Shown here piece by piece: positions 6,001-9,000 of a DNA stretch of 12,720 nt. The position numbers are program-made. Source of the DNA: a virus (Duplodnaviria > Heunggongvirae > Uroviricota > Caudoviricetes); IMG/VR virus record IMGVR_UViG_2684622619_000004. The stretch is one strand, 5' to 3'. Each line of letters begins with the position of its first letter. Within the stretch, counting starts at the first letter, position 1.

Positions 6001-9000
6001 CTCAGAAACAGGAATATTTAAATGGCTAAAAACAAATTCAGTAGTAAGAGTAAAAGGTAGTATTGCTGGAGGTGTTAGTGGTGGTTATATATGCATTAGT
6101 ATAAATAATGTTTTGTATAAGGCGCATAGACTTGCTTGGTTCTATGTATACAAAAAATGGCCTCCTAAGTTTATTGATCATGTAAATGGGAACAGACTTG
6201 ATAATAGGATTTCAAACCTAAGACTGGCAACAGAAGAGCAGAATGCAAGAAACATTGTAGGGAATAGATTAAACACATCCGGTGCAATTGGAGTGTCTTG
6301 GTATAAGCCAACTGGCAGGTGGAAGTCTTATGTTGGTTATAAAAATAAGACAATATCGTTAGGGTATTTCGATAGCAAAGAAGATGCAGCATTCATAGCA
6401 GCACTAGCAAGAAAGAAACTATATGGAACTTATGCGAGTAAAGCACTTAATTGCGAGCATGAGCTTTTATCTCAATTTAATAATGATGAGGATAAACTTG
6501 CGGAATATCTTAAGGAAAAATATAAAAGGACTCGAAAGCGTGTTAAAAAAAGATAAAGGCCTGCTGGTAATCGCAGGCCTTTTTATTTGGGGGAGAGGGA
6601 AGTCATGAATCTGGACAAGCAAGATGCACAAACTATTAGCTCATACATAAGGGCATCAAGACCAGATTACAAAGGTCCGGTATTCGTAGATTTATCTCGC
6701 CTTGAATAGATTTACATGTGGAAAGCAAGGTTACTTACGCATTTTGTTATTCGAACGATGACTAGCAACATTACAAAACCAATGTAACTGGAAGAGGTGA
6801 ATATGAGCACACTCGCAGACCTTATTCATGCCGATATGGCTGAAGATGGAGCAAGGCGTAATAGGTACTGGAAATCATCGAGCCTTCCAGTTTGTGAAAG
6901 ATTCAATCACAGGCCAAAACCAAAACGTAGCCGACGAGACAAAGTGTTGAAAAAACTCATGCAAATTAACATGGCTGGTTTTGTCAGATTCGTGAGTGAA
7001 ACGACTAACGGTGATTGATATGGACGAATCAAGAAAGCAGTTTGAGGAATACGTTGCCAAAAAATTGAGATTACCATTCGAGATGATAACCGAGGCAAGA
7101 AATGGTGATAGGTACTTCGCATTTTCAAGCATGGATATTCGTCACTCCTTAAATGATTGGTGGGCTTTATGGCAGGCATCGCGAGCAGCTATTGAACTGG
7201 ATATCGACTGGCCCGAATCGAATGACGACCTTTGGAAAGATGGTGAAGAAGGTGCTTATGCGATGGGTTATGAGGATGGGCGTGACAAAACGGTAATTGC
7301 AGTAATGAAAGCCATCAGGGCCGCAGGAATCAAAGAAAAGAATTTCGATTAAGCAAATATCACTTCAATAAATCGCTTTTAAGGCATCACAATCGCTCTG
7401 TGGTGAGGTAAGCACGTGCAAGGTATACCGATAAGCAGCGAGAATGAAAAATGCGTCAGAATGCGTTTGAGGAGGTTTTAAGAAATGAGTACGATAGCTG
7501 AGCTTGTCAGGGCTAATTTTCGTGAAGAGTTGGTGCGTTGGTATCGGTATCGTTCATCGTCCAGTTTGCCGCTTGATGAGTTGTATGAGCATTCACCTGC
7601 CGCACGACGCTATCCGCGTGACCGTGTTCTTCGACGGTTGTTCAAACTCAACAATGAGTTTCAGCGCAACAGAATTATCCGGAGTCTGGATTTTAAGTGA
7701 AGGAGTGAGCATGAGCGACCTATCATTAACCCAGCCAAAGCTAAAAGAATGTCCGTTTTGCGGCGGTAATGCTCGTCTGTGGGTTGAGGCCGGAATAAAT
7801 ATTGATGTGTGGGGCTATGCAGAATGTGACCTCTGTGAAGCCAGGGTGGCATGGGCACCATCAGTTGCTGCGGCTACTGAAAAATGGAACCGGAGAGCAG
7901 GAGATGAAGCAAACCTTTCTGCTTCGCAACGAAGCAATCAGAAATAACGCCATAGACGCCATTCTCTCACTACCCATCGACGACAAGTCACCCCACGAAG
8001 TCCACGTTAAAGAACCCAAGCGCAGCAAAGCGCAGAATGACCGCATGTGGCCGATGCTGAACGATGTTTCGCGTCAGGTGCTATGGCATGGTCAACGGCT
8101 GGCGCCGGAAGACTGGAAAGACCTGTTCACTGCCCTGTGGCTTAAGACCAAAAAACTGGAGCAAAGAAGTGCGCCTGGTATCGACGGTGGCGTTGTCATG
8201 CTTGGCGTGCGTACCAGCAAAATGCGAAAGGCCAGCATGACTGAGCTTATCGAAATCATGTTCTGGTTCGGCTCAGAGCGCAACGTGCGGTGGAGTGATG
8301 ACTCCCGGCGAGAGTATGAATGGTCACAACGAAAAGGGAAGGCTGCATGACTATCAAATCAAATACGCCAGCACACGACAAGGACTGCTGGCAAACGCCG
8401 CTCTGGCTTTTTGATGCGCTGGATATTGAGTTTGGATTCTGGCTGGATTCAGCTGCGAGCGACAAAAACGCTCTGTGCGCTCACTGGCTAACTGAGGCTG
8501 ACGACGCGCTAAATTCTGAGTGGATAAGCCACGGTGCAATCTGGAATAACCCACCGTACAGCAATATCAGGCCGTGGGTGGAAAAAGCCGCTGAGCAGTG
8601 CATACAACAGCGACAGACGGTAGTGATGCTTGTGCCAGAGGATATGTCTGTCGGATGGTTCAGCAAGGCTCTGGAGAGTGTTGACGAAGTTCGCATCATC
8701 ACTGATGGACGGATTAATTTTATCGAACCATCGACAGGGCTGGAGAAGAAGGGAAACAGCAAAGGCTCAATGTTGCTGATTTGGCGACCGTTCATCAGTC
8801 CTCGACGGATGTTTACTACCGTATCCAAAGCGGCATTGATGGCGATCGGGCTGGGCGTCAGGAGGGCTGCATGAGGCGACAGCGACGAAGTATCACCGAC
8901 ATCATCTGCGAAAACTGCAAATACCTTCCAACGAAACGCTCCAGAAATAAACGCAAGCCAATCCCAAAAGAATCTGACGTAAAAACCTTCAATTACACGG

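Follow-up and report, generated by a model that had tools for sequence, protein, structure and literature searches.

The window analysed here, 12,720 nucleotides of a Caudoviricetes genome (IMG/VR record IMGVR_UViG_2684622619_000004), is the nin region, the P-to-Q interval, of an O157:H7 Stx phage, with cI, cro, cII, O, P, tR2 and then the nin genes following one another in that order (Table 1). At the centre of interest are two related 71-aa genes, designated copy a and copy b, that flank a 110-aa gene and are followed by a gene of the Lar family. A 1,401-bp query that covers them (6560-7960) was 100% identical to Stx2a_F349, Stx2a_WGPS4 and SH2026Stx1, and the RefSeq annotation of an identical prophage contains exactly the same four coding sequences.

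Table 1. Features of the nin region discussed in the text; coordinates refer to the whole window.
Feature	Coordinates	Strand	Evidence and remarks
HNH-AP2 homing-type endonuclease gene	5945-6556	+	PF13392 HNH_3, E 2.9e-15; phrog_99, E 9e-72; context only
tR2-type intrinsic terminator, left border of the nin region	6555-6582	+	10-bp stem with 6 GC pairs, then T-run
34-aa ORF	6605-6709	+	phrog_21123, E 1.7e-20, profile positions 1-34 of 60
DUF7301 copy a, 71 aa, pI 10.35	6803-7018	+	PF23975, E 1.6e-31; phrog_1785, E 4.7e-35; WP_000105280.1
110-aa acidic protein, PHROG 343 / PF26207 (Phage_phiTE_015)	7020-7352	+	phrog_343, E 1e-29, residues 1-110
Crossover interval, 82 bp without differences between the window and either parental type	7231-7312		SNP patterns
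Spacer, 132 bp, bearing the Shine-Dalgarno sequence of copy b	7353-7484	+	Left edge of the copy b module at 7471 in phages without PF26207
DUF7301 copy b, 71 aa, pI 10.8	7485-7700	+	PF23975, E 3.8e-26; phrog_1785, E 2e-33; WP_000103678.1
Lar-family restriction-alleviation gene, Zn-ribbon CPFCGG...CDLC	7711-7947	+	PF14354; TIGR03655; phrog_599, E 1.5e-38
NinB/Orf recombination mediator	7904-8350	+	RefSeq annotation; HMM census of fetched loci

The left border of this region is marked by an insertion and a terminator. The homing-type endonuclease gene sits in a 658-bp insertion (5895-6552) between the end of P/ninA and tR2, and its AP2 match was below threshold (28.7 bits against a cutoff of 33.3). 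The insertion is missing from Nil2, L088, ST64T and Sf6, where the sequence of 5863-5894 joins that of 6553-6603. Sequence homologous to the terminator is annotated as tR2 in both Nil2 and Sf6, and in Sf6 the boundary sequence bsq6 is also labelled there. Alignment with a 60-aa ORF in L088 indicated that the 34-aa ORF beyond tR2 is a nonsense-truncated version (GAG>TAG at 6707) of the 60-aa ORF found in relatives. The spacer upstream of copy b gave no indication of structured RNA (fold z-score 0.27, no Rfam match), and a consensus scan of its plus strand revealed no promoter-like or terminator-like site. By extension from lambda biology, the two 71-aa genes and the 110-aa gene would be delayed-early genes, expressed from pR transcripts that pass through tR2 under N antitermination.

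Profile searches assigned both 71-aa proteins to DUF7301 (PF23975), which corresponds to PHROG 1785, with scores of 108.6 bits for copy a and 91.4 bits for copy b against a gathering threshold of 27, and in both cases residues 1-64 aligned to positions 1-64 of the 65-position model. The two are paralogous, sharing 25 of 56 aligned residues (45% over 56 aa; BLASTP E 2e-16), and each is preceded by a Shine-Dalgarno sequence, GAGGTG 5 nt upstream of the ATG of copy a and GAGGAGG 9 nt upstream of that of copy b. Members of this family are about 65-85 aa long and carry the motifs RYW..SSLP..ER and PRDRVLRRL, both complete in copy a, which is near the family consensus. Copy b is the Stx-phage subtype represented by vb_24B_15 of phage 24B; RY, SSLP, E32 and RDRVLRRL are present in it, and its central segment diverges from the consensus, with W23 lost, R33 replaced (ER to EL) and PKP changed to PAA. 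The invariant columns L28, E32, R45 and D46 are found in both copies. In length, basic charge, nin location and prophage hosts the two resemble other members of PF23975/PHROG 1785, such as ST64T Orf-69, BTP1 gp46 and vb_24B_15, from which they show no difference in kind, although the presence of two copies in one phage is unusual. The window and its relatives alike place these genes in the nin or early-right region of Enterobacterales lambdoid prophages.

Both DUF7301 frames are real genes under purifying selection, because dN/dS was 0.05-0.36 in the unsaturated comparisons (0.05-0.13 for copy a against its relatives) and the DUF7301 frame is the only one open throughout all 11 subtypes examined. 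The AlphaFold2 model of copy b is a helical hairpin (pLDDT 87) with helices at residues 3-25, 30-35 and 44-69, and DUF7301 is predicted to be a basic helix-loop-helix hairpin of about 65 aa (net charge +6.6 to +6.7), in which conservation is seen in the loop (motif RYW..SSLP..ER) and where helix 3 begins (RDRVLRRL). A full-library profile search returned only 60 DUF7301 representatives (E <= 0.001), with no informative fusions and no distant families; copy b matched nothing among PDB sequences at E up to 10, and a Foldseek search of BFVD gave no match below E 3.9.

The middle gene, which starts 1 nt past the stop codon of copy a, encodes a protein with a pI of 4.75, a net charge of -7.4 and five tryptophans, its negative charge being concentrated in the C-terminal half (an acidic C-terminal domain of -7). 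We assigned it to PF26207 on the basis of its PHROG 343 match together with the precomputed PF26207 labels of its relatives, among them homologues 96% identical to it (P0034, P0035) and the equivalent genes of L088-L095. With other members of this family (Sf6 gp48, mEp235 gp47, 933W p31, Nil2 ORF29) it has in common the N-terminal MDESRKQFE, the central W..WQASR, the acidic C-terminal domain IELDIDWPE..GAYAMG..IRAAGIK and the same slot in the nin region. It differs from them in being chimeric: the N-terminal half is of the kind found in Sf6 gp48 and mEp235 gp47 (97-98% DNA identity), whereas the C-terminal half is that of Nil2 ORF29 and 933W p31. Its AlphaFold2 model had a pLDDT of 71, falling below 50 at residues 67-85, and no match was found among PDB sequences at E up to 10.

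The gene that begins 10 nt past the stop codon of copy b and overlaps ninB exceeded the cutoffs of both PF14354 (37.8 bits against 28.6) and TIGR03655 (61.4 against 39.6) and encodes the four cysteines of a zinc ribbon in CPFCGG and CDLC. It genuinely belongs to the Lar family, comparable to Lar of the Rac prophage and Ral of lambda, whereas DUF7301 and PF26207 have no sequence or fold likeness to Lar and DUF7301 is without the zinc-ribbon cysteines.

A preliminary description of this locus had placed the two 71-aa reading frames exactly where we find them, and its account of an intact paralogous pair with ribosome-binding sites and under selection, of an acidic and Trp-rich middle protein, and of Lar directly downstream of copy b agrees with the evidence above. 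Its statement that none of the three could be assigned to a known family does not hold, since the pair falls in DUF7301/PF23975 and PHROG 1785, and the middle gene in PHROG 343 and PF26207; RefSeq, moreover, already names both genes of the pair "DUF7301 family protein". These families are catalogued and uncharacterised, and in this sense the description was right that no function had been characterised for any of the three. PADLOC and NCBIfam gave no matches for them, and a literature search found no papers on DUF7301, phiTE_015, their PF, PHROG or WP accessions, vb_24B_14/15 or ST933Wp31/32, and no experimental information on either family.

The flanking arrangement is explained by where its halves came from. 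Up to 7312 the window is identical to WGPS6, from which it differs at 7313, 7319, 7325, 7331, 7337 and throughout from 7346; from 7231 onward it is identical to Nil2, from which it differs at 7184-7187, at 7230 and throughout to the left of 7168. Over longer distances, WGPS6 and phi330 match window positions 4604-7357 at 99.7%, and Nil2 matches 7168-9000 at 99.1%. The SNPs change parent between 7230 and 7313, which lies inside the 110-aa gene, and that gene is a chimera with its 5' part from the left parent and its extreme 3' end from the right parent. Copy a is part of the left, WGPS6-type module and copy b is part of the right, 933W/Nil2-type module.

These patterns establish the recombinant origin of the arrangement. 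The left parent was WGPS6-like, with the order HNH, 34-aa ORF, DUF7301a, PF26207, NinB, and the right parent 933W/Nil2-like, with PF26207, DUF7301b, Lar, NinB, Dam. Both configurations co-circulate in O157:H7 Stx phages and have the 3' half of the PF26207 gene in common, and a single homologous crossover, at 7231-7312, fell within that half. The recombinant carries copy a, PF26207, copy b and Lar in succession because the crossover joined the left parent to the right one, and the flanking geometry would have no function of its own. Copies a and b are two anciently diverged subtypes of a small family of Enterobacterales prophages. A recent tandem duplication was considered and rejected: blastn detected no DNA similarity between the two copies or their flanks, synonymous differences are saturated (pS 0.88, with pN 0.44), and the copies come from different parental phages.

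Mosaicism in lambdoid nin regions has been described in terms of the "bsq" boundary sequences of HK620 and Sf6. The present case resembles it in that modules were swapped by homologous recombination at a short shared stretch, and in that the variable slot is delimited on its left by the ninA/tR2 boundary (bsq6). It is unlike boundary-sequence mosaicism in that the exchange took place inside a coding gene, PF26207, rather than between genes, with the side effect that two paralogues ended up in one genome.

The distribution of these genes is that of two common configurations and one rare junction. Copy a was present in 95 and copy b in 543 of the 5,426 E. coli genomes searched, copy b also in 183 phage records, and the full double layout was found in 52 of the same genomes. 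We counted 228 DUF7301 places in 222 phage records, which means that two copies can occur in at most six of the 222. A census of 111 loci was dominated by types I and II, and type III, the double layout, appeared in it only as copies of the window sequence; some 125 loci were sampled in all. Profile searches of contigs returned a single DUF7301 locus from genomes and 80 near-identical b-type loci from viruses, the latter informative for counts and not for diversity. Single DUF7301-PF26207 adjacencies are common, in either order. Only O157:H7 Stx phages that are nearly identical to one another have the double layout, and the matches listed for it were 99.9-100% identical. The preliminary description had treated the duplicated pair and the gene between as a unit, a view that would fall if the pairing were not conserved elsewhere; the double-flank arrangement is not so conserved, and what had looked like a unit arose once, by recombination between two widespread configurations whose crossover lies inside the middle gene. 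The three genes belong to families already catalogued, and their arrangement is ordinary. We favour, with a probability of roughly 0.7, the interpretation that they are ordinary lambdoid nin accessory cassettes brought together by a single crossover, an interpretation in which the function of DUF7301 is the part that we only infer.

Other explanations make different claims about what the genes do. They might be independent inhibitors for anti-defence or host takeover, allied with Lar and the Dam methylase rather than with NinB, which we consider unlikely. In 933W-type phages copy b is always found directly 5' of Lar, both Lar and Dam serve in restriction evasion, and the lambda slot between P and ninB holds ren, an exclusion-related gene that 933W also has there; anti-restriction DNA mimics, moreover, commonly take the form of acidic proteins such as PF26207. 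Against this, the linkage of copy b to Lar occurs only within one block of 97-100% identical DNA and so carries no independent information, other DUF7301 subtypes have no Lar nearby, and neither PADLOC matches nor structural likeness to known anti-restriction proteins were found. For the 110-aa protein in particular, an acidic DNA mimic of the Ocr or ArdA type was rejected for want of likeness in fold or sequence.

Alternatively, the basic DUF7301 hairpin and the acidic PF26207 protein might form a two-component module, for example a regulator with its anti-regulator or an inhibitor with its chaperone, in which case the window would hold one PF26207 with two alternative DUF7301 partners; this seems to us distinctly unlikely. 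The charges are opposite (+6.7 and +6.6 for the DUF7301 copies, -7.4 for PF26207), and the genes adjoin in six Escherichia and Salmonella subtypes, in both gene orders, with spacings as tight as a 1-nt gap in the copy a type, a 4-nt overlap in L116 and 12 nt in ST64T. Such frequent tight adjacency would fit a functional pair. PF26207 nonetheless occurs without DUF7301 in Sf6 and mEp235, and DUF7301 without PF26207 in 24B, L010, L043 and L097-L102, while the Serratia, Cronobacter and Citrobacter loci either have 1-2.6 kb between the two genes or lack PF26207. The order of the genes varies, and crossovers fall within PF26207 regardless of the DUF7301 subtype. Neither family had PADLOC or toxin-antitoxin family matches. 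A toxin-antitoxin or other obligate two-gene module would call for constant adjacency in a fixed order and was rejected, given that both orders and lone or separated genes occur; the context census likewise ruled out obligate pairing of DUF7301 with either Lar or PF26207. PF26207 is probably an accessory protein in its own right, and its frequent position next to DUF7301 is not an obligatory one.

That the triad is itself a selected unit, in which the duplicated pair was retained for its dosage or as a heterodimer bracketing the middle gene and regulating it, is very improbable: both copies are intact with good Shine-Dalgarno sequences and the layout is unchanged in 52 genomes, but the near-perfect identity of the listed matches points to one recombination event that spread, the copies are ancient and come from different parents, and two copies are so rare among DUF7301-bearing phage records. 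A selected triad is the reading that the preliminary description had implied. Possession of two DUF7301 subtypes, both intact in the recombinant, may be advantageous.

Finally, it is extremely improbable that ORF b is not a gene and that the true product is a long Lar ORF overlapping it in another frame (TTG, 7504-7947), as annotated in the RefSeq entry for 933W. In favour of this reading, the Lar frame of the window has no stop from 7504 on, a 119-aa "Lar-like" coding sequence is annotated over this stretch in several RefSeq phage records, and the placement of Lar on positions 64-142 of the 262-position phrog_599 profile implies that some members have N-terminal extensions. Against it, ORF b reaches 91 bits on PF23975 with its own Shine-Dalgarno sequence; the short Lar is preceded by an AAGGAG Shine-Dalgarno sequence of its own and is matched by the Lar models from residues 10-11; and the short genes are annotated by PGAP and by the authors of 24B. 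An equally long open +1 frame arose in 15% of codon shuffles, and the other DUF7301 subtypes all have this frame closed; the long overlapping ORF was accordingly rejected as the real gene.

For the ordinary accessory cassettes that we favour, then, the practical value of these results lies mainly in annotation, with an instance of textbook lambdoid mosaicism whose crossover is mapped to 82 bp within a gene. Several RefSeq records of Stx phages, 933W included, miss the DUF7301 gene, across which the over-long Lar ORF is annotated instead. Since about 10% of complete E. coli genomes and most Stx phages carry these genes, any function, however modest, would have wide relevance.

What that function is can be approached through the neighbourhood. 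The presence of NinB downstream of DUF7301 is conserved from genus to genus: in the census a NinB-like gene started 0-900 nt downstream in 11 of 13 DUF7301 subtypes, and it is the immediately next gene in the E. coli b75 type (L096), in L116, in Serratia and Citrobacter, and in Klebsiella phage RCIP0034. DUF7301 lies directly 5' of a NinB-like gene in prophages of Escherichia, Salmonella, Klebsiella, Citrobacter, Serratia and Enterobacter; members in Cronobacter and Franconibacter break this rule. Such proximity could simply arise because ninB comes first among the conserved nin genes. With low confidence, we infer that DUF7301 most likely binds an acidic protein or a nucleic acid stoichiometrically, and its conserved position directly 5' of NinB/Orf tentatively suggests that it may act at the recombination-mediator step. 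A bolder version, improbable as it stands, would make DUF7301 a dedicated partner of NinB/Orf that adjusts how Orf is loaded onto SSB-coated single-stranded DNA or protects recombination intermediates, or alternatively would have it in a charge-complementary complex with PF26207; a partnership with NinB/Orf would explain why DUF7301 lies directly 5' of a NinB-like gene whatever the other nin content. This placement is the only lead with biological potential, and if it reflects function, DUF7301 would be a new component of the poorly understood phage Orf recombination-mediator pathway.

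The two-copy arrangement of DUF7301 genes around a PF26207 gene has a recombinant origin, and the crossover that produced it can be mapped. A census of 111 loci carrying DUF7301 or PF26207 revealed two common layouts. In type I (933W, Nil2, VT2-Sakai, YYZ-2008), P is followed by ninA/tR2 or ren and then by PF26207, DUF7301b, Lar, NinB and Dam; in type II, found in P22-like and lambda-like phages of E. coli and Salmonella, the order is tR2, (a 60-aa ORF), DUF7301a, PF26207 and NinB. The window's own layout, type III, appeared in the census only as copies of the window sequence. 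In blastn searches the type II phages Stx2a_WGPS6 and phi330 (O157:H7/EHEC hosts) matched window 4604-7357 at 99.7% and, beyond the equivalent of 7357, ran directly into a different ninB; the type I phage Nil2 matched 7168-9000 at 99.1%, with no match in 6604-7167. Compared column by column, the window equals WGPS6 through 7312, with mismatches at 7313, 7319, 7325, 7331, 7337 and all positions past 7346, and equals Nil2 from 7231 on, with mismatches at 7184-7187, 7230 and everywhere left of 7168. The parent switch therefore places one homologous crossover within 82 bp of the PF26207 gene, in the 3' half that both types have in common; this single event gave the window its type II left arm and type I right arm.

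Abundance and diversity give the direction of the event, from types I and II to type III: among 5426 complete E. coli genomes, gene b is present in 543, gene a in 95 and the full layout in 52, and only 6 extra DUF7301 "places" were found among 222 DUF7301-positive phage records. Simple deletion from type III does not account for type II, whose PF26207 3' end and ninB are different. The 110-aa gene is a mosaic, its first 148 nt at least being 97-98% identical to Sf6 gene 48, mEp235 gp47 and H-19B, and its last 185 nt being of the 933W/Nil2 kind. The preliminary description had presented copies a and b as a duplicated pair; their products are paralogous (25/56 identities, E 2e-16), and the copies are ancient paralogues. 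Recent duplication is ruled out by the absence of detectable nucleotide similarity between them and by saturated synonymous sites (pS 0.88).

Profile searches also placed all three genes, which the preliminary description could not assign, in catalogued families. Copies a and b scored 108.6 and 91.4 bits on Pfam PF23975 DUF7301 (cutoff 27 bits), matched PHROG 1785, and already carry the RefSeq label "DUF7301 family protein". The middle protein matched PHROG 343 (E 1e-29), and precomputed PF26207 "Phage_phiTE_015" matches to its 96%-identical homologues and to equivalent genes in related loci indicate that it belongs to PF26207. Both families are uncharacterised, and among 8 million papers and preprints none was found by family name, accession or locus tag. 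DUF7301 is very small: 1.84 billion representatives searched by profile gave 60 proteins at E ≤ 0.001; named hosts are Escherichia, Shigella, Salmonella, Enterobacter, Citrobacter, Cronobacter, Franconibacter and Serratia, and the family is present in Klebsiella and Cronobacter phages too. The small proteins are basic (pI 10.35 for a, 10.80 for b; each about +6.6), and the middle protein is acidic and Trp-rich, as first noted (pI 4.75, net charge -7.4, five Trp). The AF2 model of copy b, built on a 34-sequence alignment (mean pLDDT 87), is a helix-loop-helix hairpin with helices at 3-25, 30-35 (short) and 44-69; conserved residues lie at the end of helix 1 (R21, Y22), in the loop (S26, L28, P29, E32, P38) and at the start of helix 3 (R45, D46, V48, L49), and the C-terminal ~20 residues are variable. 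Some DUF7301 variants (P0031, P0032 and P0033) are chimeric or frameshifted: P0031 joins a Cro/YdaS-like HTH N-terminus to the DUF7301 C-terminal helix, and P0032 moves into the Lar frame past RDRVLRR.

Features of the window, an early-right operon of a lambdoid phage, in gene order
Feature	Position	Strand	Remark
cI	2068-2769	minus	LexA-like
cro, cII, O			in this order after cI, before P
P	4490-5866		DnaB-type
658-bp insertion	5895-6552		carries HNH-AP2 gene
HNH-AP2 endonuclease gene	5945-6556		203 aa, phrog_99; after P
tR2-type terminator	6555-6582		after HNH-AP2 gene
34-aa ORF	6605-6709		
DUF7301 copy a	6803-7018	plus	71 aa
PF26207 gene	7020-7352	plus	110 aa
Crossover interval	7231-7312		
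DUF7301 copy b	7485-7700	plus	71 aa
Short Lar	7711-7947	plus	
NinB	7904-8350	plus	
Dam, NinE			in this order after NinB
isrK	9090-9166		RF01394, 74.7 bits
C4 antisense RNA	9192-9275		RF01695, 66.7 bits
First antirepressor gene	9328-10092		
30-bp tandem repeat	9520-9613		in first antirepressor gene
Second antirepressor gene			before NinG
Partial ninG-like 5' fragment	10889-11209		
Run of 50 N	11210-11259		
128-bp repeat	11260-11387		
Complete ninG	11542-11877		

Both DUF7301 ORFs are real genes, as the preliminary description had argued. Its coordinates, frames and lengths were correct, and in an identical prophage RefSeq PGAP annotates all four CDS (a, the middle gene, b and Lar) alike. Nei-Gojobori dN/dS was 0.05-0.36, indicating purifying selection, in the unsaturated comparisons (a with the related locus L088, ST64T and BTP1; ST64T with Enterobacter; b with a 75-aa E. 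coli subtype), and across 11 subtypes the DUF7301 frame alone had no internal stops. The gene after copy b is Lar family, as proposed, with scores that pass the curated PF14354 and TIGR03655 cutoffs. In the Stx-phage copy b the Lar frame is open from 7504, and a 119-aa "Lar-like" CDS (cf. window 7504-7947) has therefore been drawn over gene b, with gene b omitted, in several RefSeq records, including NC_000924.1 (933W), NC_049943.1 and NC_011357.1. Open frames of such length arise in 15% of codon shuffles, and every other DUF7301 subtype has this frame closed; we treat the over-long ORF as an artefact rather than a true product, and probably as a propagated annotation error. PHROG 599 seems to hold such over-long members, since the short Lar matches the stretch 64-142 of a profile 262 positions long. 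Between the window and L096, a locus with the 75-aa subtype, the PF26207 3' half, the spacer, the first ~36 nt of the DUF7301 gene and the YPRDRVLR codons are nearly identical, and the central ~30 codons (window 7520-7615, L096 3036-3131), spanning the otherwise conserved RYW..SSLP..ER..PKP motif, are heavily diverged; this centre is either mosaic or evolving rapidly.

DUF7301 and PF26207 are frequently adjacent, in both orders and tightly spaced (a 1-nt gap at window copy a, a 4-nt overlap in locus L116, 12 nt or an overlap in ST64T and BTP1). Each also occurs without the other, PF26207 in Sf6 and mEp235, DUF7301 in 24B and the loci L010, L043 and L097-L102; in Serratia, Cronobacter and Citrobacter either 1-2.6 kb lies between them or PF26207 is absent. 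The linkage of b to Lar is uninformative because it is confined to one DNA block of 97-100% identity. The most consistent DUF7301 neighbour is a downstream NinB/Orf-like gene, which starts 0-900 nt past DUF7301 in 11 of the 13 sequence subtypes in the census. In L116, Serratia, Citrobacter, the 75-aa E. coli subtype and Klebsiella phage RCIP0034 (examined outside the census) no other gene stands between the two. Cronobacter and Franconibacter depart from the pattern. Several unrelated genes lie between DUF7301 and the replication genes in Serratia and Citrobacter, so the linkage is to ninB, not to P. It may be functional, or may simply follow from ninB coming first among the conserved nin genes.

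A 1401-bp stretch spanning the three genes is 100% identical in the Stx-converting phages Stx2a_F349, Stx2a_WGPS4 and SH2026Stx1 and in prophages of the 52 E. coli genomes, and 99.9% identical in phage 1717; hosts among the matches listed were O157:H7, or isolates from cattle and humans. One otherwise identical prophage, L002 (NZ_CP018247.1, E. coli strain 7784), is broken by two IS1203 copies, between cII and O (2773-3986) and within the ninI-like phosphatase gene (12319-13532); its P helicase gene is frameshifted, and this copy is probably defective. The 658-bp insertion looks like a homing-endonuclease insertion: its insertion point is precisely the ninA/tR2 boundary sequence, which the Sf6 record labels bsq6, and in phages without it 5863-5894 abuts 6553-6603 with ~8 bp of overlap. 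In L096, L099 and L100 the insertion follows another replication module, a Toprim_2 primase-helicase. Relatives such as L088 keep an intact 60-aa ORF (phrog_21123) of which the 34-aa ORF is a cut-off form; GAG>TAG at 6707 made the stop, and the frame beyond it is otherwise kept. The isrK and C4 RNAs found by Rfam lie directly upstream of the first antirepressor gene, whose tandem repeat codes for repeated ten-residue units, and 9090-9275 is an immI-like antisense control region inside an Stx-phage nin region. Farther downstream, the N run is flanked by two repeated pieces, a ninG-like fragment 87.5% identical to the complete ninG and a 128-bp repeat of 8931-9058 (98%); 10889-11387 looks like a scaffold gap or assembly join, or a true partial duplication of the nin region.

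Lambda N antitermination and tR2 suggest that the three genes would be delayed-early, expressed from pR. Tentatively, the small basic DUF7301 protein could bind a nucleic acid or an acidic protein, perhaps in the NinB/Orf step; PF26207 might be an acidic accessory protein of its own, and the flanking geometry itself may have no function. The finding is ordinary lambdoid mosaic recombination of catalogued cassettes and not a new system; the sole leads worth cheap follow-up are the positional link of DUF7301 to NinB and its charge complementarity with PF26207.
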